This document shows, in pieces, positions 5,769-47,814 of a DNA stretch of 64,000 nucleotides. Both the position numbers and the translations under genes were made by a program. Position 1 is the first letter of the stretch, and every line of letters begins with the position of its first letter. This stretch comes from Alphaproteobacteria bacterium (GTDB lineage Bacteria > Pseudomonadota > Alphaproteobacteria > RF32 > CAG-239): positions 60,525 to 124,524 of the forward strand of contig JAFVFB010000012.1 of NCBI GenBank assembly GCA_017475705.1, in the 5' to 3' direction. The notes beneath the pieces were generated by a model. It was not told where the DNA came from and ran no database searches. It saw only the letters and a program-made list of their open reading frames with translations.

Positions 5769-7553
5769 ATGTTAAAAGCAAGCTACATTATAACCTTACT
5801 AGGCGGAATAGGGATATTTAATTCTTGTACGGGGAATTTTATTAATTTGCCCAAACATCAAGAGTATACAATATCAAAAGCAGAAGAGTCATTATATGGA
5901 AATTATTTAGCCGGGAGAGTTGCTCATATCCGTCAAGAGTATGATGTTGCCTCAAAATACTACGTAAAAACCATAGAAAGAGGGTTTGTTAATGATGATA
6001 TATTAAACAAAACCTATATTATTTTAGCCTCACAAGGCAATATCGATGAAGCTGTAAAATATGCCAATATGTCACGAGATAAAGGGGATAAAAACAATTT
6101 TATTGATGTCATCAATGCCGTCCATTTATTTAAACAAAATAATTACAAAGATGCACGCAAACAGCTAGAGAGAATTAATGAAAAGACATACAAAAATTTA
6201 ATATCTCCACTATTTAATGCATGGAGTTATGTTGGCGAAAATAATTATAACAAAGCTACAAATGAGCTGCAAAAAATATCTTCCGCAGAAGAAATGAAAA
6301 CCGTATACAATTTGCATCGAGGATTGGTGGCAGAAATTTTTGGCTATGAGCAGGAGGCAGAAGGTTTTTATAACAAAATTATAAATGATAAGACAACAGA
6401 TATGTCTTTTCGAGCGTTGCAAATTATTTCTAACTTTTTGGTACGCCAAGGGCAAAAAGAAAAAGCTCTTTCTCTAATAACCAAATACTATGGTTCAAGT
6501 AACATGAAAGAGATGCTGTCAAGCTTGAGTGATAAGATAAAATCAGGTGATGAAAGGACTTCTGCAATAGTAAAAACAGCGGATATTGGCGTTAGCGAAG
6601 TCTTTCTTGAGGTTGCTCTTTTGTTCAAAGCTGTTCCTGTTGGGTACGACTATGCACAAATGTATATGGCAATTTCACAATATTTTAATCCAAACAATGA
6701 TATTGCCAAAATAGCAATGGCGGATATTTGTGAAGAAAGGCAGATGTATAATCAGGCCAATAAATATTACGATTCTATCAGCAAAAAATCAGAAATGTAT
6801 TATCCGGCACAAATCAAAAAAGCAAATAATCTCTCAAATGAGAAGAAATATGATGCAGCTGTTAAGGTGCTGAAAAAGTTATTACGAAACAACCCAAATA
6901 ACTTTCAGATACTATCAAATTTAGGAGATATTTTGCGTATGAGCAATAATCAGCCAGACGCAATAAAATATTATAAAGAGGCTTTAAAATCTATTTTTTA
7001 TGAAAGTGAAAAACATTGGCCTTTATATTATGCACTAGCTGTCTCGTATGACCGCAATAACGAATGGAACAAGGCTGAAGAAAATCTCAAAAAAGCCTTA
7101 GATCTAAGTAATCGCCACCCGCAAGTCTTGAATTATTTGGGATATTCGTGGTTAAAAAACAATATAAATGTAGATAAGGCGGCCTCACTAATCCTAGAAG
7201 CCTATGAAAAAGAACCAAATGATGGGATAATAATGGATAGCCTTGGATGGGTGTATTTTAAAACAGGTGACTATAAAAATGCAATTTCTTACTTGGAAAA
7301 AGCATCAGAACTTAATCCACAAAATGCAATTATCAGTGACCACTTAGGAGATGCTTATTGGCTCGGTGGCCGCAAAAATGAAGCTATTTTCTTATGGAAG
7401 CAGTCATTGCATCAAAAAGAAAATCAAGAAGAACTAAATCCTAGAGTAATCAAACATAAAATACAAAATGGGTTAAAAAACATTGAAGCCTTGCAAATCA
7501 AAGACGAAAAACTGAAACAAAGCCTTCATAGTCTAAATGATATTGCAGACTAA
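5769..7553 (+). CDS. TPR-repeat lipoprotein
   Basis: 594 aa. Lipobox (IFNSC). Multiple TPR-like repeats (...AIKYYKEALK..., ...NAISYLEKASELNPQNA...). Confidence 0.6.
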   Translation: MLKASYIITLLGGIGIFNSCTGNFINLPKHQEYTISKAEESLYGNYLAGRVAHIRQEYDVASKYYVKTIERGFVNDDILNKTYIILASQGNIDEAVKYANMSRDKGDKNNFIDVINAVHLFKQNNYKDARKQLERINEKTYKNLISPLFNAWSYVGENNYNKATNELQKISSAEEMKTVYNLHRGLVAEIFGYEQEAEGFYNKIINDKTTDMSFRALQIISNFLVRQGQKEKALSLITKYYGSSNMKEMLSSLSDKIKSGDERTSAIVKTADIGVSEVFLEVALLFKAVPVGYDYAQMYMAISQYFNPNNDIAKIAMADICEERQMYNQANKYYDSISKKSEMYYPAQIKKANNLSNEKKYDAAVKVLKKLLRNNPNNFQILSNLGDILRMSNNQPDAIKYYKEALKSIFYESEKHWPLYYALAVSYDRNNEWNKAEENLKKALDLSNRHPQVLNYLGYSWLKNNINVDKAASLILEAYEKEPNDGIIMDSLGWVYFKTGDYKNAISYLEKASELNPQNAIISDHLGDAYWLGGRKNEAIFLWKQSLHQKENQEELNPRVIKHKIQNGLKNIEALQIKDEKLKQSLHSLNDIAD

Positions 7554-7558
7554 ATCTC

Positions 7559-8938
7559 CTATTTTTGATATTTTGAGATAAGAGACTTTAGATCTTGAGC
7601 TAACTTTTCAACCAAATGAACATCAGTTCCTTCAACCCGAAGCTTGATAACCGGTTCTGTCCCAGACTTTCTTGCAATAAGATTACTATCATTGCCTAAT
7701 GCCGCCTTTGCTTTATTTAATGCCTGCTTAACATCTTCATGCTCAACGCTTTCCATCATGTATTCTTTAGAAGAAAAACGAATGTTTTCAATTTTGCAGG
7801 GATAAGGTTTAAAGATAGGGAATATTTCACTCATCTTTCTCCCATCTTCTAAATAAGCTAATGATAAAACAACCGCGACAGCAAGGGCATCACCACTTCT
7901 TGCATAATCTGCCAAGACAATATGTCCAACCAATTCTCCGCCCAAAACTGCATCTTTTTCGCGCATCAAATCTATAACATAGCGTTCTCCAACTTTGCTT
8001 TTATAGTGCGCAAAGCCATGGGCTGCCAGAAATTTTCCAAGTCCTAAATTAGACCATTCAGTGCTAATAACAATATCATTCTTTAGTTTATTATGCTTTT
8101 TCAAATACTGCGCCAAAAAACATAGCAACTGATCGCCGTCAATAATTTGCCCACAATCATCAATCAAAATTATTCTATCTCCGTCACCATCAACGGCCAA
8201 ACCAAAATGTGCGTGTGAATCTTTAACAACTTGTGAAAGCTGCTCTGTGTGCTGCGATCCGCAGTCTTTATTAATATTATAGCCATCTGGAGCATTATTA
8301 ATTGCAATAATACCAGCGCCCAAATCCTTAAGTACTTGAGGAAAAATTTGATAATAGGCCCCATTTGCACAATCGAGAACGATTCGCAGCCCTCTTAGTG
8401 CCGCATAACTAGGAGCAATTTGGCGTATTCTCTCACAGTATGCTTCAACTATATTAACGGACTTTTCAACACGTCCAAGGGGGGAAGGGCTTTTATTTTT
8501 GTTATCGTTTCTATTATTGGTTGAGTTATTTTTTTGCTTATTATCTAAAAGCCCTTCAACTCTGGCATAAAACTTATCTGGAAACTTATCACCATTCTTA
8601 TCAATGAGCTTTATGCCGTTATCTTGATATGGATTATGCGATGCTGTAATCATTATCGCCATATCAACATCTAAATGCGGAACAGAATTTGTAATCAAAG
8701 GTGTTGGTACGATTCCAAGAGAAATTACGGAAACACCATTGGCTGTAAAGCCAGCTGTTAATGATGCTTCAAGCATATCACCAGAAATTCTAGTATCCTT
8801 GCCAATAGCAACTTTCTTTTTTTCATGGCAGACTTCAAGACTCAGAATTTCAGCTAAATCAAAAGCAAATTCCGCAATCATCGGGTATTGATTCGCAATA
8901 CCACGAACTCCATCCGTTCCAAATAATTTGTTAACCAT
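7559..8938 (-). CDS. glmM: phosphoglucosamine mutase
   Basis: 459 aa. N-terminus FGTDGVRG and phosphoserine loop TASHNPYQDNGIK. Carries an Asn/Lys-rich low-complexity insertion. Confidence 0.9.
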   Translation of the reverse strand: MVNKLFGTDGVRGIANQYPMIAEFAFDLAEILSLEVCHEKKKVAIGKDTRISGDMLEASLTAGFTANGVSVISLGIVPTPLITNSVPHLDVDMAIMITASHNPYQDNGIKLIDKNGDKFPDKFYARVEGLLDNKQKNNSTNNRNDNKNKSPSPLGRVEKSVNIVEAYCERIRQIAPSYAALRGLRIVLDCANGAYYQIFPQVLKDLGAGIIAINNAPDGYNINKDCGSQHTEQLSQVVKDSHAHFGLAVDGDGDRIILIDDCGQIIDGDQLLCFLAQYLKKHNKLKNDIVISTEWSNLGLGKFLAAHGFAHYKSKVGERYVIDLMREKDAVLGGELVGHIVLADYARSGDALAVAVVLSLAYLEDGRKMSEIFPIFKPYPCKIENIRFSSKEYMMESVEHEDVKQALNKAKAALGNDSNLIARKSGTEPVIKLRVEGTDVHLVEKLAQDLKSLISKYQK

Positions 8939-9027
8939 TAGTCGCAGCTCCTATCTTGTTTGAATATCTAAAAGCTAAAGCCTTCCAAACAAGATTGCAA
9001 GCTTTTATATAAGGGTTGTTGCCAATT

Positions 9028-9645
9028 TTAAAAAACGTATCTAACACCCATATATACTTCATGGTCGGTAATATCTGTACGACCATTATGCATGGATAGA
9101 TCACCCATATCATAATAGCGATAACCAACATCAAGATTCCAATGATTTGTCAATTTTGCAGATAGTCCTGCACCTAATGACCAAGTAAAGCTATTATCTT
9201 TTATAGAATACTTCGTGTCGGCAGTTATATTACGAAAACGCAATTTATTGCGAGTATAACCTACACCAGCATCAATAAATGGCGTAAACCAGTAATTAGG
9301 AAAGAAGTCATAATAGACAACAAACATATAAGAATGAGATTTAAATTCAGCTTTATTCAAACCTATAATTGTCTCTTTGTTTTTTCTTCTCCATACATAT
9401 TCAATTTCTGCACGGAAGTGGCTGTACCGATAACCTAGAGCACCACTTGCCATAAATCTGTCTTTGTCAATAACGTAGTCTGTAGCATCATCACGAACAT
9501 TACTCCGATTATCATCAACTTCATAATTAGCAACACCACCTCGGCCAGCGAGGTAGAAGCCATCACAGCCGGCATAAGCTGGCATTGCCGCACAAATAGA
9601 AGTTGTGGCTAAAAGAGCTACAGCAAAATTAGATCTTTTTATCAT
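9028..9645 (-). CDS. Omp25/Omp31-family outer-membrane beta-barrel protein
   Basis: 205 aa. Signal peptide ...AMPAYA. Alternating beta-strand pattern with an aromatic-rich C-terminus ending in F, typical of the Rhizobiales Omp25/Omp31 family. Confidence 0.8.
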   Translation of the reverse strand: MIKRSNFAVALLATTSICAAMPAYAGCDGFYLAGRGGVANYEVDDNRSNVRDDATDYVIDKDRFMASGALGYRYSHFRAEIEYVWRRKNKETIIGLNKAEFKSHSYMFVVYYDFFPNYWFTPFIDAGVGYTRNKLRFRNITADTKYSIKDNSFTWSLGAGLSAKLTNHWNLDVGYRYYDMGDLSMHNGRTDITDHEVYMGVRYVF

Positions 9646-9795: not shown

Positions 9796-10162
9796 ATAAA
9801 ATGATAGAAAATCCCCAAGGTGGTCGGATAGCTGCGTTGATTTTTTTTCAATGAGGAAAGTCCGAGCGTCGTGGAAACATGATACCGGATAACGTCCGGC
9901 TGGAGAAATCCAAGGGAAAGTGCCACAGAAAATTACCGCCAAATTTATTTGGTAAGGTTGAAAAGGCGAGGTAAGAGCTCACCGCGCACATAGTAATATG
10001 TGTGGCAAGGTAAACCCTATCTGACGCAAGACCAAATTAGGAGAGCGGCTTCGCCGTTTCATAGAGCGTTTCCACTCTACTCCAGAGGTAGGTCGCACGA
10101 GCAGGCTGGCAACAGTTTGCCTAGATGAATAGCTATCGCTTAGAATCTTCACTATTTTAGCG
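9796..10162 (+). ncRNA. rnpB: RNase P RNA (bacterial type A)
   Basis: Conserved blocks GGAAAGTCCGAGC (P4 5' strand), AGGGAAAGTGCCACAGAAA, GGTAAGAGCTCACCGCGC and GCCTAGATGAATAGCTATCGC (P2/P4 3' strands) are present. Ends are approximate (about ±15 nt). The minus-strand ORFs overlapping this region are spurious. Confidence 0.8.
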
Positions 10163-10212
10163 AAGCAAATGATAAGTACAAAACTCGGCTTATAGACCAC
10201 CTAATTTTTTTA

Positions 10213-11851: not shown

Positions 11852-13552
11852 ATGCTAAAATCTCTATCTGTTAAAAATGTTGTTCTCATAGACAGTCTGG
11901 ATATAGATTTTGGACGTGGGCTTATCGTATTAAGCGGAGAAACCGGCGCCGGTAAATCTATTTTATTGGATTCGCTTGGCTTGTTACTTGGCAATAAAAC
12001 AGATACCGGCTTAATTAGAAATGGAGAGGAAAAACTTTCTGTAACAGGAGTCTTTGATGTTTCTCCTCAAAATAAAATATTTGAATTAGCAGAAAAGTAT
12101 GAGTTAGATATTGATGGAGATATTATCATAAAACGCACTATTTCTGCAGATGGAAAAAGTAAAATACTGTTTAATGACCAAATAATAACCCTAAAGTTGC
12201 TTAAAGAACTAGCGCAATACTTGATAGAAATTCATGGTCAGCATGATAATCAGGGTTTACTAAACCCCTCTACCCACCTAAATATTTTAGATGCATATGG
12301 CGGTTATACCAAAGAACTGGATACAGTAAAAAACACTTATTTAGCATATAAAACAGCACAAAAAGAGTTTAACGAAAAATCTGCAAAGTTGCAAAAAGCA
12401 GCTGAAGATGAAGAAAACATTCGTCACTGGGTACAAGAGTTAGAAAAGGTTGCACCTCAAAAAGGAGAAGAAGAAGAACTGCGCCAGCGTCGCAGTGAAA
12501 TGATGAATGCTGAAAAAATCATCGAAAAACTAAATACAGCTTATACAGCATTAAATGCAAACACCTCGGTGATAGATAATATTTCAAAAGCTCGTAATGC
12601 TATAGCTAGAGCCAATGAGATAGTAAACAATAAATATTCAGAGATAGAGCAAATTCTTGAAAACGCATTATACACATTAAGTGAGGCAATAAATCAAATA
12701 GAAGCAAGTTCAACAGAAATCACCATAAACCAAAATGAAATAGATAATATAGAAACACGCCTGTTTTTACTAAAAGACCTTGCTAAAAAACACCAAACGG
12801 AAATCAATCTGTTACCGGAAAAATTACAAGAATTATCAGTAACGCTGAATAATTTAGAACTAGGAGCTGATGATTTAGAAGAGCTAAAAAGAAAAGTAAA
12901 TTCACTGCGTGAAAATTACATATTATCAGCACAAAAACTAAGTCAATCTCGCCAATCAGCTGCAAAAAAGTTAGATAAATCAATTGCAAAAGAGCTCCCT
13001 CCACTTAAAATGGATAAAGCTCATTTTCAAACCACAATAACGCAAAAAAAAGAGGAACATTGGACAGAAGAAGGGTGCGATAACGTTTGTTTTGAGGTAT
13101 CCACAAATCCTAACACGCCTCTGGGGCCATTGAATAAAATAGCCTCAGGAGGAGAGTTATCTCGTTTCATGCTTGCACTAAAAGTTAATTTAGCAGAACA
13201 AAGTCACGAAGAAACATTGATTTTTGATGAAATAGATACAGGAATTGGTGGTGCGACGGCTGAAGCTGTAGGAGAACGGTTATCACGCTTAAGCCAAAAG
13301 GAACAAATATTTGTTGTTACGCACTCTCCGCAAGTGGCTGCATTTAGTAATGAGCATTTTAAGGTTGAAAAGTATACAACCGGCAACATAACAACAACCA
13401 CCTTAACAAAATTGAATAATAAAGGGAAAGTGGAAGAAATTGCCAGAATGTTAGCCGGAGAGAAAATAAGCGAAGAAGCACGAGCCGCAGCATATGTATT
13501 ACTAAACAAAGATTCCAAACAAACCCCTGACCCCAAAAGCAAAGGAGCATAA
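11852..13552 (+). CDS. recN: DNA repair protein RecN
   Basis: 566 aa. Walker A GETGAGKS, a long coiled-coil middle, and the signature/Walker B region (SGGELSRFMLAL...LIFDEIDTGIGG). Confidence 0.9.
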   Translation: MLKSLSVKNVVLIDSLDIDFGRGLIVLSGETGAGKSILLDSLGLLLGNKTDTGLIRNGEEKLSVTGVFDVSPQNKIFELAEKYELDIDGDIIIKRTISADGKSKILFNDQIITLKLLKELAQYLIEIHGQHDNQGLLNPSTHLNILDAYGGYTKELDTVKNTYLAYKTAQKEFNEKSAKLQKAAEDEENIRHWVQELEKVAPQKGEEEELRQRRSEMMNAEKIIEKLNTAYTALNANTSVIDNISKARNAIARANEIVNNKYSEIEQILENALYTLSEAINQIEASSTEITINQNEIDNIETRLFLLKDLAKKHQTEINLLPEKLQELSVTLNNLELGADDLEELKRKVNSLRENYILSAQKLSQSRQSAAKKLDKSIAKELPPLKMDKAHFQTTITQKKEEHWTEEGCDNVCFEVSTNPNTPLGPLNKIASGGELSRFMLALKVNLAEQSHEETLIFDEIDTGIGGATAEAVGERLSRLSQKEQIFVVTHSPQVAAFSNEHFKVEKYTTGNITTTTLTKLNNKGKVEEIARMLAGEKISEEARAAAYVLLNKDSKQTPDPKSKGA

Positions 13553-15168
13553 TGATGATTGAATCAATAAAAAACAGTGATTTTGATGTTGAGGATATAG
13601 TGACGCAAAAATGGAGAAATATATCGGTCCTGTCCAAAAAGTCGTTTCTTTGGATATTTATAATTACTAATATTGTCTTTTTATTTCATACAGTAACATT
13701 TTTTTGGGGAAATCATGATTGGACACTAATAAAAAACGGCTTTGGTATAACAAATGATATGTTAAAATTAGGACGATTTACCAGTGGGGCACTCCAACAA
13801 CTTATGGGCGGAGATATCTTACCGATAGCGAATAATTTATTCTGTTTTGCAGGTTTTACTTTGGCCGCTATATATCTTGCAAAATATTGGAAAATACCAC
13901 AGACCCCAATTACTTATATAATGTTTGGTCTTTTTGTAATAATAACGCCATATACTCTGCCATGGTTATGGTATACCAAACAGACAACTTTATTCTGGAA
14001 TATATTATTTTGTGTTTTAGCTTTAATTTTATCTGAAAAATATAGTCTGATAAAATCAATTATTGCCATAAGTCTCATTACTTTTAACCTAGGGACATAT
14101 GCTTCTTTAATTTCAACACTTTTAATAATGCTTTTAGGACGCATTTTGATAGATATAATGTATGAAGAAAAAAGTCTCAAAATGCTTATAAATAGCTATA
14201 CTAATTCAATAATAAATATAGTCATTGGTAGTGTGCTTTTTCTTATCGTCCTTTTATGGTTAAAATACACAGGAAAAATGGGACAAGGGCAAGCGAATAC
14301 AGATTTTATCTCAATAACAGACTTGAAGCAAAAAATAAGTTATTTGATACATATCAAAAGTATTTTTTACACAGCGACACCATACATTAGCAGCAAATTA
14401 ATGTTTTTAATGACGTTACCTGTATTTGGCGTTTTTTATATTGCAATAAAAAAGCACGTTTTTCTCAAAACGCTTATAGGAATATTGCTTTTATTTATAT
14501 GCAGTCAAATGACAAATTTATTAGCAAAAGAGAATTTTAATCATTACACAAGAGTCGAGTTCTTTTCATATCCATTTTTATTTGCAGCATTTATTGCTGG
14601 TTGCTTAAAGTATACCAAGAGCGTAAAGTCATTAACAATTATCCTCCTCACAGTCATAATCTATTCTTGTGCCCTGTCAGATTTTCGTTTTCAGAGAGTT
14701 AATTATCTGGGAAAAATGGCAGAAATGGAACAATACCAAGATATAAAAGCAAGAATAAAATCAAACAAGGCTTTTCGTAATAAAGAATATATATTAATCA
14801 GTGTCGGCGCAAATACAAAACGTCCACTTTTTTATCATTACAATAAATCTAAAGGCTATGCAGGAGATATATTAAAACACGGTACGATTCGCAATTGGAA
14901 TGAAACAGAATATTATAATTTTTCAGAAGAAAAACCTTTTATAAAAAAGTCGTTTTTATTAAGTAGCAAGAGGTTTATGCCCAAAGATATCAAAACTTTA
15001 ACAGAAATTTCAAACTTTATTTTTCAAAAAGCAAAGCCTTATCCGTATGAAAATTCTGTGTATATTGATAACAAATACATATACATAATATATAATGAAC
15101 AGGGGTTAAAGCAAGCAAAAGAAAATTTACGCGAAATGTTAAAAAAGAAAGGAGTACAATATGAATAA
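13552..15168 (+). CDS. polytopic membrane protein, putative GT-C-fold glycosyltransferase
   Basis: 538 aa. About 11 TM followed by a ~170 aa soluble C-terminal domain. Start overlaps the recN stop and the end overlaps the downstream GtrB-like GT2, which suggests translational coupling. Very AT-rich. Confidence 0.4.
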   Translation: MMIESIKNSDFDVEDIVTQKWRNISVLSKKSFLWIFIITNIVFLFHTVTFFWGNHDWTLIKNGFGITNDMLKLGRFTSGALQQLMGGDILPIANNLFCFAGFTLAAIYLAKYWKIPQTPITYIMFGLFVIITPYTLPWLWYTKQTTLFWNILFCVLALILSEKYSLIKSIIAISLITFNLGTYASLISTLLIMLLGRILIDIMYEEKSLKMLINSYTNSIINIVIGSVLFLIVLLWLKYTGKMGQGQANTDFISITDLKQKISYLIHIKSIFYTATPYISSKLMFLMTLPVFGVFYIAIKKHVFLKTLIGILLLFICSQMTNLLAKENFNHYTRVEFFSYPFLFAAFIAGCLKYTKSVKSLTIILLTVIIYSCALSDFRFQRVNYLGKMAEMEQYQDIKARIKSNKAFRNKEYILISVGANTKRPLFYHYNKSKGYAGDILKHGTIRNWNETEYYNFSEEKPFIKKSFLLSSKRFMPKDIKTLTEISNFIFQKAKPYPYENSVYIDNKYIYIIYNEQGLKQAKENLREMLKKKGVQYE

Positions 15169-16117
15169 CATACCTGATATATCATTTGTTGTTCCAATGT
15201 ACAATGAAGAAGATGTCATCGCAACATTCTTCTCGACCATGGATAAGACACTGAAAAAAATACCTCAATACACTTATGAATTTATATGCGTTAATGATGG
15301 TAGCAAAGATAAAACCCTACCAATATTAAAAGAATATGCCACTAAAGATAGGCGTATAAAAATTATCAGTTTCTCACGTAATTTTTATAAAGAGCAAGCT
15401 CTTTTTGCCGGTCTAGAGGCTTCATCAGGTCGCTGTGTTATTCCGATGGATGCAGATTTACAGGACCCTCCGGCACTAATTCTTAAATTTATAAAGAAAT
15501 GGCAAGAAGGTTATGAGGTCGTTTATGGTGTAAGAACAGAAAGAACTAAAGATACACTAATCAAGCGTATAACAGCTAACCTTTTTTATAAGATATTTAA
15601 TTTTATAGCGGATAGACCCATTCCAGCCAATACTGGAGATTACCGCTTGATGGATAGAAAAGTTGTTGATGCAATTTTACAAATTAAAGAAAATAAGCTA
15701 TTTATGAAAGGAATTTTCAGTTGGGTCGGGTTCAAATCTTGTGGTGTCGAATACCAAAGGCCCAAAAGAGCCGCTGGCAAAACGAAATTTAACTATTGGA
15801 AATTATGGAATTTTGCCCTTGATGGCATTACTGCTTCAACAACATTGCCTTTAAGAATATGGACTTATATAGGAAGCTTTATTGCTGCAATTTCTGGTCT
15901 ATATGCACTTTATATTATTGGTAGAACACTTTTTATGGGGGTATCCGTTCCTGGCTATGCCTCATTACTCGTTTGTATTTTATTTTTCGGCTCTGTACAA
16001 CTAATTGTTCTAGGTATCTTCGGAGAATACATTGGTCGAATATTTATGGAGGTCAAACGCCGTCCACGTTATATCATAGATGAAAAAATCAATTTAATAG
16101 AACATGACAAAATTTAA
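15161..16117 (+). CDS. GT2 polyprenol-phosphate glycosyltransferase (GtrB/ArnC-like)
   Basis: 318 aa with VVPMYNEE...NDGSKDKT...DADLQDP motifs. Two C-terminal TM, as in GtrB/ArnC. Confidence 0.8.
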   Translation: MNNIPDISFVVPMYNEEDVIATFFSTMDKTLKKIPQYTYEFICVNDGSKDKTLPILKEYATKDRRIKIISFSRNFYKEQALFAGLEASSGRCVIPMDADLQDPPALILKFIKKWQEGYEVVYGVRTERTKDTLIKRITANLFYKIFNFIADRPIPANTGDYRLMDRKVVDAILQIKENKLFMKGIFSWVGFKSCGVEYQRPKRAAGKTKFNYWKLWNFALDGITASTTLPLRIWTYIGSFIAAISGLYALYIIGRTLFMGVSVPGYASLLVCILFFGSVQLIVLGIFGEYIGRIFMEVKRRPRYIIDEKINLIEHDKI

Positions 16118-35437: not shown

Positions 35438-37629
35438 TTATTTAATAGAGGAATAAATGGTAAGAGAAAGAGGGAAAGAGTGGGAAGAATATGATAAAGC
35501 CGTCCGGTGGATGGCTACCACGTTTATCATATCTGTCGTGGTCGCAATGGTGCTGGTTTATTTGTCTCAGCCTATAGCCTATCTGGTGCAAAAAGGTGTA
35601 TCCAAAGAAAACGTTGATGTTGCAGTAAGATTTCTGAAAAAATCACTGGCAGATCCCGGATTTTTATATGATAGATATATAAGATGGTTCAAGCAAGCAA
35701 TGCGTTACAGTGGAGCTTTTAAGCCCAGCTTATGGATACCGATATTGCCATTTATAATGTTTCCACTGATATTAATTATTGGAGGCATTAAGTGTCCATA
35801 TAAATTCCAGTCCAATATTCATGGTTCTGCACATATCGCTACTTTAAGAGATATCGAAAAGATGGAACTGCTTGGCTTCGATGGATTTTGCATGGTTGTT
35901 GGCAAGTTCCAAGGTAAGATGTTGAAATTAAAAGAAACATTATCAACACTATGCTGTGCACCTCCTGGTACAGGTAAAACAGTAGGTATTGTTATTCCAA
36001 CAATTTTTAATTCTGAAGGTCTGAGTATCATTGTAAACGACCCAAAACCCGAGTTATGCTACAAAACTACGGGAGCAAGAAATAAAGTTGGTCCGGTATT
36101 TGTTATAAACTGGGGGAAAGAAGATAATCCAGAAACTGGTGAATACTATCCAAGCTGGAACCCACTTTCACCAGGGGCCTTGCCAATGCCTGGTCCAGCG
36201 CGAGATTTGTACGTAGATTCAATGTGTAATACGCTGGTAGAAGATCCCAAGGGTAATGCTGACCCGCACTGGTCAAAAACAGGTCGTAGTGCGTTGTGCG
36301 GTTTCATACATTTTATATCTTCAAAATGCGAGAGAGCTCTTGCTAATGAAAAGTTTATCCAAAAAATTTATGAAGGTTCACTAACAGCAGAAGACAAAGC
36401 AGAATTAATTAATTACTATAGTGACATGAGCATGGGTGGCCTGCGTACAAATGCCGCTCAAGCTATTTCAGATATACAAAATGATAATCTGACTATAGAA
36501 AATTATTTACCGATAGGGACATGGAATCTTCTACCGGAAAAATGGATAAATCATGAACCGTGTATGGCTATGATATTGGAATGGATAACCAGTTCACAAA
36601 TAGAGCAGGCTAATGATATTCGCCGCCGACTGGAAGAAGGTGACCAAATGGCTGCAATGGCAGACCCAATGCGAGATTTGCTAGATGCAGCAGTAGAAGA
36701 GGCGAACAATTATGGTTATTCCCGCCGCTGTGTAACGGAGCTAAGTGCCTTAAGTGCAATGCCGGATAAAGAGCGCGGTTCTGTTTTATCAACAGGTTTA
36801 ACCGGTATTGGTATATTTAAGAACTCAGCCGTCGTTGCCCGAACAAGCTTTTCTGATATCCAATTTAAAGATTTGCGAGGGATGAAAGACCCTGTCACTG
36901 GTGAATGGCGGCCAATTTCCGTATATCTTTCTGTAAATCAAACAGATGCGCAAGCCTTAAATCCTATCAGCGCAACATTCGTAGACTTGATGAGTGCTTA
37001 TTTAATTTCTAATCCACCTAATGCGGTTAATAAATCAGATGGCAAAATGGGGCCATTTCCAGTACTATTTGTGCTCGACGAGTTTCCGCAAATGCCAAAA
37101 TTAAAAGCGGTTATAGACGGTCCTGCTGTTGGTCGTGGTCAAAAGGTTGCATATTTATTGATAGGACAAGATTTAGGGCAAATTTCTGGGAAATACGGTA
37201 AGGATGACCTCGAAACAGTTATCTCAACCACGGCCTGCAAAGTTATCTTATCACAAAACAATGAACAAACCGCACAGCGTTTTTCAAAGATGATTGGTAA
37301 TAAAACAGTACAAACCACATCTTTTTCACGCAGTGAAGGAGGTATAAGCAACAAAGACTTTAATCCATTTTCTAAAAATGTAAGTTACCAATTGCAAGGT
37401 GTCTCAGCCATTAGTACCAATGACCTATTGAGTCTACCGATGCTTAAGCAAGTTGTTTTAATGCAAGGCTACATTGATACACCGATTATGGCAGATTCAC
37501 CTCGTTGGTATCTTGATAAAAAGATGAGAGAGCTGGCATCATTACCTCCATCGCCAAATGTTCCGGACTGGATTGTTGCTCAAAGAACAGATGAAAATGA
37601 AGATATACTGTCCAAACTTGGAATAGATT

Positions 37630-40564
<2,935 letters not shown>

Positions 40565-40670
40565 TTAAAATAATGCAGTGTTTCAATAAAAAATAAGTAC
40601 AGCCCAATAAAGATTTTTGTTGCAAGTTGAATTAAGATAGGTATCATATTATATGTAACTAAAATTTTTA

Positions 40671-41222
40671 TTGGAGGCAACAATAGCTACAGAAAACACA
40701 AATGCGCCAGTACGAGAAGCAGACGGACCACGCATAAATCAAGAGATAAAAGTAAAAGAAGTACGTTTAATAAATTATAATGGGGAAAATTTGGGTGTTG
40801 TGCCAATTGCAGAAGCGCTGCACATAGCCTCAGAAGTCGGGCTAGATTTGATAGAAATTTCCCCTCAAGTAACTCCCCCGGTTTGCAAAGTGCTAGACTA
40901 TGGTAAATATAAATATGAGTTACAGAAAAAGAAAAATGAAGCCAAGAAAAATCAAAAGGTTGTTAATATCAAAGAGCTTAAGTTACGCCCGATGATAGAA
41001 GCGCATGATTATGAAGTCAAATTAAAGCAAGCAAAGAAGTTTTTATCGCAAGGTGATAAGGTAAAGTTTACGATGCGCTACAAGGGTCGTGAGCTAAGTG
41101 CTAATGATATGGGCAAAGAAGTCCTAAATAAGTTGATAGAAGATTTAGAAGGTCTATGCAAGGTTGATGCTGCTCCTAAGTTAGAGGGTAAGCAAATGTT
41201 TGTTGTGGTGTCGCCAGCGTAG
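40671..41222 (+). CDS. infC: translation initiation factor IF-3
   Basis: 183 aa. Starts with a non-ATG codon (TTG). Matches IF-3 across N- and C-domains (INQEIKVKEVRLI...PPVCKVLDYGKYKYE...). Confidence 0.9.
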   Translation: MEATIATENTNAPVREADGPRINQEIKVKEVRLINYNGENLGVVPIAEALHIASEVGLDLIEISPQVTPPVCKVLDYGKYKYELQKKKNEAKKNQKVVNIKELKLRPMIEAHDYEVKLKQAKKFLSQGDKVKFTMRYKGRELSANDMGKEVLNKLIEDLEGLCKVDAAPKLEGKQMFVVVSPA

Positions 41223-41245
41223 CAAAATATATATTTTATCAGGTT

Positions 41246-41287
41246 AAGGCAGTTTAATCAAGGATGATTAGCTGCCTTATTTTTTAT
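41246..41287 (+). terminator. intrinsic terminator after infC
   Basis: Long hairpin AAGGCAGTTTAATCA-AGGA-TGATTAGCTGCCTT followed by ATTTTTTAT. Confidence 0.6.
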
Positions 41288-41582
41288 ACTTTACTTTTCT
41301 TATTTTTATTTATAGAGTAAAAGCGGACAGGGTGTTCTTGTCTGGGGTGTGGAAACCTCTTCAAGGAAATAGAAGGAACGTATGATTGTCCGTCTCACAG
41401 TTGTGTTTATTTAAATACATGACTGGAAGGCGACAAAATACGCCGCTTTGAGACTCATATATAACTGCAGATGTATATGCCGTTTAGGCTAATATGTCGC
41501 ACAATCCTTGAATTGTTTCCAACTTCCAGTCGCTTTATAGCGACTTTTTCTTTGACTTAGGAGCTAAAAAAGGAAGTTGATT

Positions 41583-44500
41583 ATGAAGAAACAAAAGAAC
41601 AAGCAAGCTAAAAAAGCATCAAAATTGGCAAAGGCCGAGAACTTAAAGAAAAAACCAGCACAATTTATTACGGTTAAAAATGCCGAGGGTGATCCCGATA
41701 CAACCGCCGAAATCCTCATTCAAAACCAAATCGATTATACGCCGAAAGTATCGGTGATTATTCCAGTTTATAATGTGGAACAATACCTGCGCGAATGCTT
41801 GGATAGTGTTGTTAACCAAACATTGAAAGAGATAGAAATCATCTGCGTGGACGATGGCTCAACCGATTCTTCATTGGAAATCCTCAAAGAATACGCCGCA
41901 AAAGACAAGCGTATGACAGTTATCCGCCAGCAAAATCTCCATGCCGGTGTCGCCCGCAATGCCGGTCTATCACAAGCAAAAGGAGAATACCTCAGCTTCC
42001 TCGATTCCGACGACTTCTTCGAACTCAATATGCTAGAGGAGATTTATGACAAATCTAAGCAAAATGATGACGATATTTTTATTTATAATTATGATTTTTA
42101 TGACAATGACAAGAACTTATACAAAGAATCATATAAATATAATTCAAGGTATTTGCAACAAGAGGGGTTTTCTGCAAAAGATTATCCGAAAAATATCTAT
42201 TTTTTAGCGACACCAAATGCATGGACAAAGCTCTTCAAAAGAACCTTAATTGTAACCAACAGTATTTACTTTGAAAATTGCCCAAGTTGCAACGATATTA
42301 CTTTTGTAGATACGGCTCTTTCTGTTGCGGAAAGGATAAACGTATCAAACAATGTATATGTACATTACAGAATAAATTCAGGTATAAATATATCAAACAA
42401 CAGAGAAGTAAAAGCTTTTTCAATCATTCATGCGATGAAAAAACTAAAGTCAAATCTTGAAAGACTAAAAGTGTATAAAATATTTCGAGATAATTTTGAA
42501 AAGCAGTTAGTTGTTCGTGCAAAATCGGAGATTTTAAAAGCTGATACAGTTTTTAAAACAAAATTCTTAGCAGAATTTAAAAATATTTTTGCTGATGATT
42601 TATACAATGAACTTCTGAAAGAATTAGAGGTAAAAGTCTCAATCATTATTCCAATTTATAATGCTGAAAAATATTTACGTGAATGCTTGGATAGTGTTGT
42701 CAATCAAACTTTAAAAAATATTGAAATTATTTGTGTCAATGATTGTTCTACTGATGGTTCATTAGAAATTATAAAAGAATATGCCAGTAAAGATGGGCGT
42801 ATCATAATTGTCAATAATGATAAAAATACCGGAGCTCCAGGTGCGGTAAAAAATATTGGTATGCAGCATGCCTCAGGTGTATATATTGGTATTGTCGACT
42901 CTGATGATTATATTGATTTAAACTATTTTGAAGAGTTGTATAATGTTGCAGTAAAAAACAATGCTGATATTTCATCTATATCTAGTATTATTAAATTTTC
43001 AGGAAAAAAACAAACACCTATTATACTTGATACAAAAGGGAAAACAATACTTAGCAACCCAAAAGACAAAACCCCACTAATGAGAATATCTAGCACAAAT
43101 TCTGCACGAATATACAGAAGGGAACTACTGGAAAAATACCATCTTAGATGCTATGATAAATTTTCAACAGCAGAAGACAACTTATTTTCGATGGAAGTTA
43201 TGAGTGTGGCTAATAAAATAGCGATGGTGCCAAATATAACTTACCATTATAGGCAACGTGAAGGGAGTGTCACCGGACGAAAGAGAACCAAAGAACATTT
43301 TAATATTTTTGATATTTACCTAATGATAGATAAATTCATATCTAAAACCTTTAGCGGAGAAGAAAAAAACTTATATTTAACAGCTGTTAACGAACGGAAA
43401 AAGTTAGATTTTAAATGGTTTTTAAATTCTTTAGATATCAACTATTTACAAGAATTTAAGGAAAAACTATTAAATGTATTTCCTTTGGTATACAAACACT
43501 TGTTCTTAAATGAAATACCTATAATTTTAGCATCTGATGATAACTATGCGCCATTTATGTACACAACAATGGTATCAATTTTAGAAAATGCAAAAGAAAC
43601 AACTTATTATGACTTTTATCTTATGGTTCCATCTGCATTTTCTAAAAACAACGAAAAAACAATTTTGACCCTAAAAGATAAATACAATTGCGATATTCAA
43701 TTTTTGGATATGAAAGATGCTTTCTCGGACTTGACTATGCAAATATCGCATATTACATCGCCAACTTATTACCGTTTGCTTGCAGGAGATTTATTGCCTA
43801 AAGAATATGATAAATGTATTTATCTGGATGTTGATATCTGTGTTTGCCAAGATTTGAGCGAACTTTATAATATTGACATGGGTAATAATTATATTGCCGG
43901 AGTTGTTGCAGCAGGTTATTATTTTTCTGAAGCGGCAAACTGTAAACGATTAAATCTGCCATCAATGCGAACATATGTTAATGCCGGTGTTTTGCTGATG
44001 AATTTAAAACAAATTCGTCAAGACAGGATGACAGAGAAGTTTGTTGAATTATCTAAGAAAAATTACTCATCTCAAGACCAAGATGTTGTAAATATTGCGT
44101 GTTATGGCAAAATTATAACATTGCCACCTAAATACAATGCGATGACTACGAGGCTACAGCAAAATGACGCGCGTTTAAGAGATTTATATTCAGAAGAAGA
44201 TATTTGGAAAGCAAATAAACATCCATATATTATTCACTATGCAGATAAAAATAAACCATGGAATAGTAGCTTTGTCTATATGGAACAATACTGGTGGAAT
44301 ATTGCAAGAAAAACTCCATATATTGATTTATTTAAAATAGATGCATCATTTTATAAAACTCAGCTAGAGCAATGGTGGTATAGAGCGAAGAAAACTTCAT
44401 TAAACCTAGATAATCCTAAAACTTTTAATGAAAAAATTCAATGGATGAAACTATATGATTCGACACCGCTTAAAACGCGTTTAGCAGATAAATATCTGGT

Positions 44501-46046
44501 GCGTGACTGGGTAAAGGAAAAAATCGGTGAGGAATTTTTGATTCCGCTGTTAGGTGTTTATGATAGGTTTGAAGATATTGATTTTGACAAGCTTCCAAAT
44601 CAGTTTGTCATCAAATGCAATCATGGTAGTGCTTACAATATTATTGTTAAGGATAAATCAAAGCTGGATTTAGTAGATGCAAAAGCAAAACTTGATAAGT
44701 GGATGAATGAAGACTTTGCTTTTAAGTCGGTAGAACTTCATTATCGTGACATAGAACATAAAATCATTATTGAAAAGTATATGGATGATGGAACTGGGGA
44801 TTTAAGAGATTACAAATATACTTGCTTTAATGGAAAACCAGAGTTTATTTGGATAGACAGCGATAGACATACTAAACACAAACGTAATTTATATGACTTA
44901 AACTGGAAACAATTACCATATAAAGTTAATTCGCATTATGACACATTTCCATCACCAGATAAACCAGAACGCTTAGATGAAATGACACAACTTGCTAAGA
45001 TATTAAGCGAAGGATTTTCTTATGTTCGTGTTGATTTCTACATAATAAATGGGAAAATTTATTTCGGAGAAATGACATTTACATCGTCTAGTGGAACTGA
45101 AGATATTGTTCCTGAAAGTTTTGATAGGTATTTAGCTAAAAAGATTAAACTTCCCAAACTCGCCTACAATATTGATACCGGTGAGTATTATAAATTGCCG
45201 AAACCAAGTAAACTCGCCCCATATCTCTTCTTCCCGTATTATCTGTTCAAGGTGGCGCAGATGCGTAAGAAGGTGTTTGCGTTAACAACAGATAAAATAT
45301 TATCTGAATTTACCAAGATGCGGATAGATATTAAAAATAGCGGCACTGCTAAAAATGCTTTGTCTATCACGGCACCAAAAGCAAATATTGATACCCCAGC
45401 TTGGTTTACAAATGCAAGGGGTATCGGACAGATGGTGCAAGGCAATAACCTCAAACAAACCATAAAAATCAAAGCAATTAATGATGGAAAATTAATCTTT
45501 GATTTCCGCGGGCAAGATAAAAGAGATAAAGAAAATCAACGCATTCCGCTATGGTGCGACTATCAGTCTATTAAAATTGATGGCAAAAAGATTAATGATA
45601 AAAAAGAGCAAACATGGCACGATAAACCTTATCACTATGAAATGCCCGTAAAAGATGGGCAAGAGGTTAAAGTTGAAATCGAACAAACCTATCATCGCTA
45701 TATGGAAGGTGATCTTCGCGATACAATATTAGAGCTGTTTCCTAGTGACAAATACATTACCGAAAATATTGATAAATTAACCGCGAAAATCTTTCATTTT
45801 ATAGAATCTAAAGCATCTGCTAAAACATTAAAGCAAAAACTTACAAAAAAAGAGGCGAGCCTAAAGCTATTTAAGGTTTTGCCGATTGCCAGTTTTCGGC
45901 ATAGCGGTGGCAAAAAAGTTTGGAAGATTTTTGGCCTGCCAGTGTTCAAAAAGCGCATGACAAATAATGGAAACACCACAAAATACTACATACTAGGCAT
46001 AAATTTGCTGCAATTAAATAAAAAGACAACCGATGTCTTGCGTTAG
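41583..46046 (+). CDS. multidomain glycosyltransferase: GT2 + GT2 + GT8 + TupA-like ATP-grasp + unknown C-terminal domain
   Basis: About 1487 aa from the ATG 7 nt after the RBS AGGAAG. Two GT-A modules (VIIPVYN..DGSTD..DSDD), a GT8 module (DVDICV, HYADKNKPWN), a TupA-like ATP-grasp module (KCNHGS...) and a ~280 aa C-terminal domain. Confidence 0.8.
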   Translation: MKKQKNKQAKKASKLAKAENLKKKPAQFITVKNAEGDPDTTAEILIQNQIDYTPKVSVIIPVYNVEQYLRECLDSVVNQTLKEIEIICVDDGSTDSSLEILKEYAAKDKRMTVIRQQNLHAGVARNAGLSQAKGEYLSFLDSDDFFELNMLEEIYDKSKQNDDDIFIYNYDFYDNDKNLYKESYKYNSRYLQQEGFSAKDYPKNIYFLATPNAWTKLFKRTLIVTNSIYFENCPSCNDITFVDTALSVAERINVSNNVYVHYRINSGINISNNREVKAFSIIHAMKKLKSNLERLKVYKIFRDNFEKQLVVRAKSEILKADTVFKTKFLAEFKNIFADDLYNELLKELEVKVSIIIPIYNAEKYLRECLDSVVNQTLKNIEIICVNDCSTDGSLEIIKEYASKDGRIIIVNNDKNTGAPGAVKNIGMQHASGVYIGIVDSDDYIDLNYFEELYNVAVKNNADISSISSIIKFSGKKQTPIILDTKGKTILSNPKDKTPLMRISSTNSARIYRRELLEKYHLRCYDKFSTAEDNLFSMEVMSVANKIAMVPNITYHYRQREGSVTGRKRTKEHFNIFDIYLMIDKFISKTFSGEEKNLYLTAVNERKKLDFKWFLNSLDINYLQEFKEKLLNVFPLVYKHLFLNEIPIILASDDNYAPFMYTTMVSILENAKETTYYDFYLMVPSAFSKNNEKTILTLKDKYNCDIQFLDMKDAFSDLTMQISHITSPTYYRLLAGDLLPKEYDKCIYLDVDICVCQDLSELYNIDMGNNYIAGVVAAGYYFSEAANCKRLNLPSMRTYVNAGVLLMNLKQIRQDRMTEKFVELSKKNYSSQDQDVVNIACYGKIITLPPKYNAMTTRLQQNDARLRDLYSEEDIWKANKHPYIIHYADKNKPWNSSFVYMEQYWWNIARKTPYIDLFKIDASFYKTQLEQWWYRAKKTSLNLDNPKTFNEKIQWMKLYDSTPLKTRLADKYLVRDWVKEKIGEEFLIPLLGVYDRFEDIDFDKLPNQFVIKCNHGSAYNIIVKDKSKLDLVDAKAKLDKWMNEDFAFKSVELHYRDIEHKIIIEKYMDDGTGDLRDYKYTCFNGKPEFIWIDSDRHTKHKRNLYDLNWKQLPYKVNSHYDTFPSPDKPERLDEMTQLAKILSEGFSYVRVDFYIINGKIYFGEMTFTSSSGTEDIVPESFDRYLAKKIKLPKLAYNIDTGEYYKLPKPSKLAPYLFFPYYLFKVAQMRKKVFALTTDKILSEFTKMRIDIKNSGTAKNALSITAPKANIDTPAWFTNARGIGQMVQGNNLKQTIKIKAINDGKLIFDFRGQDKRDKENQRIPLWCDYQSIKIDGKKINDKKEQTWHDKPYHYEMPVKDGQEVKVEIEQTYHRYMEGDLRDTILELFPSDKYITENIDKLTAKIFHFIESKASAKTLKQKLTKKEASLKLFKVLPIASFRHSGGKKVWKIFGLPVFKKRMTNNGNTTKYYILGINLLQLNKKTTDVLR

Positions 46047-46050
46047 AAAC

Positions 46051-46090
46051 AAAAAAATCCGCCGATGTTTAATCGGCGGATTCCTTTTCT
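46051..46090. terminator. bidirectional intrinsic terminator between the GT gene and fba
   Basis: AATCCGCCGAT-GTTTA-ATCGGCGGATT hairpin flanked by an A-run and a T-run. Confidence 0.6.
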
Positions 46091-46100
46091 AAATAAAATC

Positions 46101-47724: not shown

Positions 47725-47814
47725 TGGCGGAGTGTACAGGACTCGAACCTGTGCATCCCTATTCAGGATGACGGATTAGCAATCCGCTGCATTACCACTC
47801 TGCCAACACTCCGC
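47725..47814 (-). tRNA. tRNA-Ser (anticodon GCU)
   Basis: The reverse complement folds as a tRNA: acceptor GCGGAGT, D arm GGCAGAGTGG, anticodon loop TTGCTAA, a long variable arm, T-arm GGTTCGAGTCC and genomic CCA. A hairpin plus T-run follows (47690-47724). Confidence 0.85.

Follow-up and report, generated by a model that had tools for sequence, protein, structure and literature searches.

A stretch of 64,000 nucleotides (nt) from an alphaproteobacterium of the GTDB lineage RF32; CAG-239 (NCBI GenBank assembly GCA_017475705.1, contig JAFVFB010000012.1, positions 60,525 to 124,524 of the forward strand), here called the window, carries on its plus strand an open reading frame (ORF) of 1487 codons (41583..46046) for a glycosyltransferase (GT) of 1487 residues. 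The beginning of this gene uses far more codons ending in C than the rest of it does, and the switch in codon usage falls at the junction between a conserved N-terminal head and a variable body. Probably, though by no means certainly, this is a modular GT gene that has been rebuilt by homologous recombination, in which a head allele shaped by a preference for C-ending codons has been joined, at the conserved/variable junction, to a body with host-like codons.

The switch was located by a likelihood scan for a single change point in G+C content at third codon positions (GC3), with 1000 permutations. The best change point lies after codon 153 (nt 42041), in keeping with the original prediction, made from the sequence alone, that GC3 would step near 42.05 kb. 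GC3 is 0.471 to the left of this codon and 0.271 to the right (log-likelihood ratio 12.2, reached by 0/1000 permutations, p<0.001). In windows of 40 codons, GC3 is 0.38-0.53 over codons 1-150, with a maximum at codons 80-150, and 0.10-0.35 beyond. Codons 1-160 form the highest-GC3 stretch of the entire 64 kb: the six top windows of 100 codons (0.46-0.49), out of 1441 sliding windows over all ORFs, all lie at 41673-41823. For the other genes, windows of this size have a mean GC3 of 0.281 (standard deviation 0.045) and a maximum of 0.41, and the remaining ORFs in the window have GC3 values of 0.21-0.34.

The amino acid composition of the head does not account for the step. With the protein sequence held fixed and the expectation drawn from the codon usage of the window itself, codons 1-160 contain 74 G/C-ending codons where 42.7 are expected (z=5.8). 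For codons 161-1487 the corresponding value is z=-0.4, and for codons 351-455, within the duplicate module, it is z=-1.5. The claims that the first ~480 nt use GC-rich codons, and that the duplicate and the rest of the gene use AT-type codons, are thus both borne out. The codons singled out at the time are indeed enriched in the head (CTC for 6/14 Leu, GCC for 7/13 Ala, CGC for 3/4 Arg, TTC for 3/4 Phe), as is ATC (6/12 Ile). The enrichment is confined to C-ending codons and does not extend to G-ending ones. In codons 1-160 versus the window background, the C-ending share of pyrimidine-ending codons (NNC/NNY) is 0.50 versus 0.21, C at 4-fold degenerate sites 0.31 versus 0.16, and ATC among Ile codons 0.50 versus 0.16, while the G-ending share of purine-ending codons (NNG/NNR) is 0.30 versus 0.24 and 4-fold G 0.15 versus 0.14. 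With the leader codons set aside (codons 26-160), the figures are 0.47 versus 0.21 for NNC/NNY, 0.23 versus 0.24 for NNG/NNR, and 0.18 versus 0.14 for 4-fold G. The likely well-expressed host genes fba, sucD, glgP, and infC show no preference for C-ending codons.

Two weaker GC3 islands, which the earlier reading had missed, lie at the other end of the gene. One covers codons ~1191-1290 (45153-45450; z=3.7) and the other lies at the extreme 3′ end (45840-46043). In these islands GC3 reaches 0.40-0.50 (including codons 1181-1260), and both G- and C-ending codons are raised.

In the product, two GT2 modules are followed by a GT8 domain, then by a TupA-like ATP-grasp domain and finally by a C-terminal domain, so that GT2 (PF00535) and TupA-like ATP-grasp (PF14305) are combined in one ORF. 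The ~300 C-terminal residues that follow the TupA-like domain have no family match in a Pfam scan. PF00535 scores 266.7 bits against a gathering cut-off of 23.3 and matches two stretches, the best of which spans residues 57-199. Residues 1-160 consist of a Lys-rich leader and the half of a GT-A fold that binds the donor, in which the motifs VIIPVYNV, DDGSTD, and DSDD occur; the segment at 41583-42060 codes for this leader and for the half of GT2 domain 1 that binds the nucleotide sugar. This half ends in a DxD motif, the DSDD of residues 141-144, which lines up with the DSDD of GalT1 (5HEA, E=3.5e-34). GalT1 and the two-module chondroitin synthase K4CP are the closest solved relatives of these 160 residues, and most matches to solved GT2 structures span only residues ~55-190. 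The two GT2 modules share an identical 20-mer, at 41793 and 42681, which had been noted before and is the longest exact match between them. Their identity, put at ~60-65% in the original prediction, is ~60% over the first ~104 residues only and far lower beyond, with successive segments at 84%, 80%, 36%, 44%, and then 12-36%. In the closest homologue, its own two GT2 modules are ~36% identical over 238 aligned residues.

A search with the whole protein returned 3633 homologues; among the best 120 listed, nearly all are multidomain proteins, ~1150-2460 residues long, whose architectures are shuffled. Residues 1-360 of the protein from the window were aligned with 34 homologues bearing the same leader. 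Mean identity to the window protein is 0.78 before residue 153 and 0.25 after it (least-squares change point); by bins of 20 residues, it is 0.59-0.95 up to residue 160 and 0.15-0.36 beyond. Since the GC3 step and the change point in family identity both fall after codon or residue 153, the compositional step coincides exactly with the conserved/variable junction. The catalytic modules behind the conserved head vary from gene to gene in the family, and the acceptor-side half of the first GT2 domain (42042..42617) has an identity of at most 51% to every homologue but one, a protein designated P0001. The head is the standard conserved front end of a large family of multidomain GTs in gut bacteria, and not an add-on. 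The suggestion that the N-terminal module had been acquired is therefore right in that the head has a history of its own, but not in treating as an addition what is standard in the family, where most relatives show a smaller step at the same place.

A genome scan with the head alignment keyed on generic GT2 motifs. It found mostly ordinary GT2 genes of many phyla, in which GC3 tracks that of the host, and only ~7 loci that are close family members. A partial Campylobacter protein (P0159) has 75% identity to the head. In four of the related loci, the large GT gene stands last in an operon-like order GT2-RgpF-GT2-megaGT (L002 3140-14027, L083 5828-13525, L084 5754-15487, L086 5868-14797), and in this context only 20-30 nt precede its start. 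The window copy is separated from this usual context. Elsewhere in the window, at 13552-16117, a GtrII-like membrane protein gene and a GT2 gene have ~75% nt identity to the genes after the mega-GT in L083, which suggests, from sequence similarity, that they may be a dispersed remnant of the same glycan locus elsewhere in the genome.

The history of the gene emerges from comparison with two loci from one wolf-gut sample: scaffold L002, which encodes the closest homologue P0001 (2008 aa), and L088, from the nearest relative of the window genome. Synonymous divergence (dS) of the window gene from L002, computed codon-wise by segment, changes abruptly along its length. It is ~1.0 in codons 1-160 (with a proportion of synonymous differences, pS, of 0.75 in codons 56-112, and a nonsynonymous divergence, dN, of 0.045), 0.13-0.24 in codons 161-450, 0.82 in codons 451-540, 0.15-0.20 in codons 541-770, 0.65 in codons 771-905, and >1 beyond codon 906. 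The density of mismatches to L002 drops at ~41898 and again at ~42078, which places the breakpoints near the GC3 step. Adjacent segments of one gene thus differ in their divergence from the same relative, both in dS and in mismatch density. The backbone genes of the window and L088 have dS of 0.20-0.46. Because the head dS of ~1.0 exceeds this range, the head alleles split before the genomes did, whereas the sequence behind the head, at 0.13-0.24, is no older than the genome split. These divergences argue that at least one of the two heads, that of the window or that of L002, would have been replaced by recombination with a more distant allele. Of the origins put forward in the original prediction, recombination or gene conversion is accordingly upheld as a mechanism, by the breakpoints, the fall in dS, and the excess of head over backbone divergence; the qualifiers "recent" and "higher-GC donor" are not, as the searches gave no near-identical donor allele. 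A higher-GC donor of the head is nonetheless plausible.

Within the second GT2 module, a patch at 42888-43110 differs from L002 by 23-33% of nt (dN 0.16) in surroundings that are 95-98% identical. It may be either one more small recombination tract or an acceptor loop that evolves fast.

The comparison with L088 concerns the whole gene and its chromosomal setting. The gene sits in a variable slot in the order ligA-infC-[slot]-fba, which is kept in related genomes. In L088, whose LigA is 97% identical to that of the window and whose backbone is 93-94% identical in nt, the slot (6266-9304) holds a gene for an 872-aa GT8 protein in the place of the 1487-aa GT (slot 41223-46100 in the window). The two slot genes are 94% identical in nt up to 41663 (codon 27) and 93% identical from 45217 (codon ~1212) to the end, so that the first 25-27 leader codons and the last ~276 codons are common to both, while the middles are unrelated. 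Since its ends match L088 and its middle does not, the catalytic middle of the gene has been swapped while its ends are resident. The C-terminal domain, which has dS of 0.30 to L088, holds most of the second GC3 island, and the C-terminal islands, which straddle the 3′ cassette breakpoint at ~45216, are kept in L088. In the L088 gene, too, the resident C-terminal part (GC3 0.38-0.53) follows a very AT-rich cassette (0.10-0.25).

In more distant genomes, the slot is empty or holds unrelated cargo. In L090 and L091 (LigA 84% identical to the window), the infC-fba gap is 68 nt with one common terminator; the empty site of L090 is at 9223-9291. In L115 (LigA 84%), the slot (8547-9290) holds an unrelated 122-aa ORF, and in L116 (LigA 83%) it holds an unrelated 413-aa gene with GC3 of ~0.5 (6811-8280). 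The islet is thus present or absent at a conserved site, and the infC-fba intergenic region is an insertion hotspot in this clade. No integrase or transposase gene lies within 41223-46100, and no tRNA target lies at the border of the islet, the nearest tRNA being past fba. Plain terminators form its borders; no systematic search was made for direct repeats. The features of the islet are listed in the table.

Table. Features of the infC-fba islet and of the glycosyltransferase gene that it carries (coordinates refer to the window)
Feature	Coordinates	Strand	Basis
5′ leader of the inserted islet, with a conserved non-coding element	41290..41582	+	missing from the empty slot of L090/L091
Lys-rich leader peptide, codons 1-25 (MKKQKNKQAKKASKLAKAENLKKK...)	41583..41657	+	5′ anchor; 94% nt identity to L088 through ~41663, where it ends
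Conserved head (codons 26-153), donor-binding N-terminal half of GT2 domain 1	41658..42041	+	PF00535, GC3 change point, family identity, dS
Variable C-terminal (acceptor-side) half of GT2 domain 1, host-like AT-rich codons	42042..42617	+	GC3 z=-0.4; dS 0.13-0.24 vs L002
Second GT2 module (internal duplicate), AT-rich; 20-mer copy at 42681, divergent patch 42888-43110	42618..43502	+	Pfam, module comparison
GT8 domain, residues 647-895	43521..44267	+	PF01501, 145.9 bits
TupA-like ATP-grasp domain, residues 950-1189, AT-rich	44430..45149	+	PF14305, 215.5 bits
C-terminal domain, ~276 codons, begins PYLFFPYYLF; 3′ anchor	45216..46046	+	92.8% nt identity to L088 from 45217 on
Terminator-like hairpin between the GT gene and convergent fba, right edge of the islet	46056..46082	+	terminator scan; comparison with the empty site of L090

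Upstream of the gene, a conserved non-coding element at 41420-41554 (in a leader region at 41420-41560) has 82.6% identity to L005 9796-9937 (leader region 9796-9945), a sequence directly upstream of a homologous GT in an alphaproteobacterial metagenome-assembled genome (MAG). A terminator scan places a terminator-like hairpin followed by a T-run at 41528-41545, 38 nt ahead of the GT start codon (minimum free energy z-score -2.4). The element could be an attenuator or a riboswitch-like leader. Rfam matches it weakly to sRNA-Xcc1 (31.6 bits, with the gathering score at 53), but the homologous element of L005 gives no such match, and the hit is taken as chance.

The host is a low-GC gut alphaproteobacterium with a GC3 of 0.28. 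The adjoining LigA has 81% identity to proteins of gut Alphaproteobacteria MAGs, including "Acetobacter sp. 46_36", and LpxC, BamD, and BamA confirm that the host is a diderm. Beside ligA lies a gene for a VirD4/TraG-type type IV secretion coupling protein (35457-37679), whose position is kept in L088, L090, L115, and L116. Two ordinary housekeeping RNAs were also found, a class A RNase P RNA (9816-10208, 274.5 bits) and a tRNA on the minus strand (47728-47812). A match of 90 nt between window 47725-47813 and L026 is merely this tRNA.

A codon-usage switch within one ORF could also be produced during assembly, if the head of one genome had been joined to the body of a related gene from another through a shared repeat. 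The conserved head, being repeated between genomes, appears to be a place where metagenome assemblies break off or are wrongly joined. At 41954/41955, within it, two further assemblies of this strain come to an end (the end of L087, and L114), and the latter joins 56 nt of unrelated GC-rich sequence (its positions 1-56) at 41955. In addition, many of the head homologues among the database matches are fragments at contig ends. However, window 38166-41954 is matched at 99.97% identity by L087, a MAG contig from NCBI, and chromosome, leader, and head are thereby confirmed to be continuous up to 41954. At the 3′ end, the comparison with L088 shows the gene returning at 45217 to the chromosomal backbone that it left at its 5′ end, and a chimera would thus require two false joins. 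The head-to-body junction itself recurs in an independent assembly, as L002, from another sample, shares it with 100% aa identity over residues 113-176. The ENA metagenome contig k141_249864 differs from the window by one mismatch over the 16,464 nt of contig compared, and a second contig codes for an identical 1487-aa protein. Finally, the head alleles differ by at least 15% of nt, too much for a join at k=141. The chimeric origin that had been offered as one of three is therefore very improbable.

On the preferred reading of recombinational rebuilding, the leader and the C-terminal domain would be resident anchors in the infC-fba slot, between which the catalytic middle would have been swapped relative to L088. 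Within that middle, the allele from which the head (codons ~26-153) stems would be more distant than the source of the sequence that directly follows. Its mainly C-ending codons would reflect the compositional regime in which the head allele evolved, the simplest source being a different genome, with a preference for C-ending codons, in the same gene pool, and the head would not yet have drifted to the AT-rich codon usage of its present host. Synonymous third positions polarised with the near-saturated outgroups L083, L084, L086, and L003 show 10 AT-to-GC changes against 1 GC-to-AT change on the window branch, six of the former being T-to-C, and 4 against 2 on the L002 branch. The 10:1 excess is expected if the allele evolved in a GC-richer genome. 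Many C-ending codons are seen in the window allele only, such as CTC at Leu45, 101, 137, and 140 and ATC at Ile44, 50, and 100; the family-wide ones are few (GCC121, GCC124, CGC125). The head signature is unlike all well-sampled host backgrounds and like a thinly sampled one, that of L003 (NNC 0.46, NNG 0.19, 4-fold C 0.35, 4-fold G 0.13).

The compositional step is found in other family members as well. GC3 drops at about the same codon in L002, L083, L084, L086, and, more weakly, L003, with heads at 0.28-0.46 and downstream sequence at 0.12-0.27 in hosts with GC3 of 0.28-0.57. In a metagenome scan for the peptide FLDSDDFFELNML, which is blind to codon usage, 27 alleles had a mean GC3 of 0.31-0.33 upstream of the junction and 0.21-0.27 in the next ~250 codons. 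The window head (0.46-0.47) is at the top of the range among close family members that bear the leader. In the very AT-rich lineages of L095, L105, L106, and L113, heads are as AT-rich as bodies (GC3 0.03-0.23), so the head module does not by its nature require a high GC3.

Several of these results weigh against an import of the head from a C-preferring genome. The head is richer in GC3 than the codons that follow in most close relatives, regardless of host GC3, a pattern not explained by a purely one-time import into the window gene. No donor allele closer than 85% in nt (92.5% in aa) was found; the protein search with the head alone was not exhaustive, as it gave short fragments only and missed the 2008-aa P0001. 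No sampled host background has CTC and ATC fractions like those of the head (0.50 each), and the resemblance to L003 rests on a background of 581 codons only. The polarised AT/GC changes on the window branch number only 11, with outgroups near saturation. L002 and L088, although from the same sample, are not proven to belong to one genome. The data show the step, its place at the conserved/variable junction, the breakpoints, the variable slot, and the excess of AT-to-GC changes, while the donor and the timing of the replacement are inferred.

A rival reading is a local process of GC enrichment such as GC-biased gene conversion. Homologous recombination would repeatedly resolve in conserved "handles" (the head and the C-terminal anchor) during cassette swaps, and repeated heteroduplex repair there would raise third-position G and C whatever the host. 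It would account for GC3 islands at both ends of the swapped cassette, in the window as in L088, and for their recurrence at the head, the KLPKLAY/PYLFFPYY joint, and the tails in L002, L083, L084, and L086. It would likewise account for family heads whose GC3 (0.33-0.46) does not follow that of hosts ranging from 0.28 to 0.57, and for the 10:1 excess of AT-to-GC changes. Raised GC3 has been reported for recombining bacterial genes (Lassalle et al. 2015, PMC4450053). However, biased conversion should raise G and C alike, and the head raises C only, in a strand-asymmetric manner, with G-ending codons at background level over codons 26-160. The fully AT-rich heads of L095, L105, L106, and L113 also speak against it. 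The effect in the head is, moreover, far above the modest genome-wide effects described for bacteria. This explanation is unlikely on balance, though it retains a real chance of being right. An extension of it, in which the head and the C-terminal anchor are dedicated recombination handles for "plug-and-play" swapping of modules within one ORF in gut bacteria of several phyla, with the GC3 islands as the footprint of biased repair, is doubtful and has a slender chance. If true, it would make GC-biased gene conversion visible in bacteria in a strong and localised form, and intra-ORF swapping of GT modules would be a way of varying surface glycans.

Selection on the synonymous codons of the head, whether for a translational ramp, for co-translational folding of the Rossmann-like half, or for accuracy at conserved residues, fits with the head being the most conserved part of the protein and with a bias specific to codon type (NNC over NNU). 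At some sites, such as GCC34, ATC87, GCC121, GCC124, and CGC125, many alleles also have the same C-ending codon. Nevertheless, many other C-ending codons are private to the window allele, and synonymous sites between alleles are near saturation (codons 56-112). Conservation alone was rejected as the cause of high GC3, as the equally conserved TupA-like domain, with 72-86% identity to many homologues, is AT-rich (codons 906-1190, z=-1.65 with amino acids controlled). A ramp predicts an effect in the first 30-50 codons, whereas the GC3 peak is at codons 80-150. Together with the AT-rich heads of other lineages and the lack of a C-ending preference in host genes, this makes selection on codons improbable.

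A second function of the DNA or RNA of the segment, in the form of an antisense ORF, an internal promoter, or RNA structure, is scarcely believable. An antisense ORF of 86 aa is present (41768..42028), and promoter-like matches occur at 42067-42129. However, the antisense frame is one in which chance ORFs are frequent, its third positions coinciding with those of the sense frame, and the promoter-like sites number 4 against a shuffled expectation of 2.9. As the synonymous sites are near saturation between alleles, constraint at the nucleotide level is not visible, and the antisense ORF was rejected as a cause on this ground. Loading of Rho on C-rich, G-poor sequence was rejected as well, the overall GC skew in 41600-42050 being about zero.

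Recombinational rebuilding, as the preferred reading, makes this gene a quantified intragenic mosaic, in which a compositional step, a conserved/variable junction, and a breakpoint lie within a few dozen codons of one another. It also points to a large unstudied family of modular mega-GTs in gut Alphaproteobacteria and other gut phyla, a family that probably diversifies surface polysaccharides. An abrupt change of codon usage within an ORF, when met in genome scans, can signal the meeting of two modules and not an assembly error, and such junctions are places where metagenome assemblies tend to break.

Recombinational rebuilding of surface-sugar genes is ordinary and well established, and no new kind of mechanism is revealed here. 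Loci for O-antigen, capsule, and lipooligosaccharide are mosaic and compositionally atypical, and are rebuilt by homologous recombination in conserved flanks. The window gene resembles them in that conserved anchors surround variable AT-rich GT cassettes, in its atypical composition relative to the chromosome, and in the other cassettes found at the same site in close relatives. It differs from them in that the anchors and breakpoints lie inside one ORF (leader, head, and C-terminal domain) and not in flanking genes, and in that one anchor is richer in GC3 than the host instead of richer in AT. The recombining segments described by Lassalle et al. (2015, PMC4450053) share the raised GC3, but the enrichment in the window head is specific to C and absent from heads in AT-rich lineages. 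Chondroitin synthase K4CP (PDB 2Z86/2Z87) likewise has tandem GT2 modules, and the N-terminal half of each aligns (E=2e-30, two stretches). However, it is without GT8, ATP-grasp, and C-terminal domains, and the identity is confined to the donor-binding half.

The large capsule GTs Cj1438, Cj1434, and Cj1432 of Campylobacter jejuni, studied in the Raushel laboratory, have an N-terminal GT2 of ~325 residues followed by further domains, and the TupA-like ATP-grasp domain of Cj1438 amidates glucuronic acid (PMC11800379). Between the C. jejuni paralogues, the GT2 heads have 87% identity, with a differing block at residues 126-159 (PMC11800379), near the junction in the window protein. In architecture, the window protein resembles the Cj1438 type described there, with GT2 and TupA-like ATP-grasp in one polypeptide. 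Unlike Cj1438, however, it has a second GT2 module, a GT8 domain, and a further domain at the C-terminus, and whereas the Cj genes are part of a capsule cluster, the window gene stands alone in its chromosomal slot.

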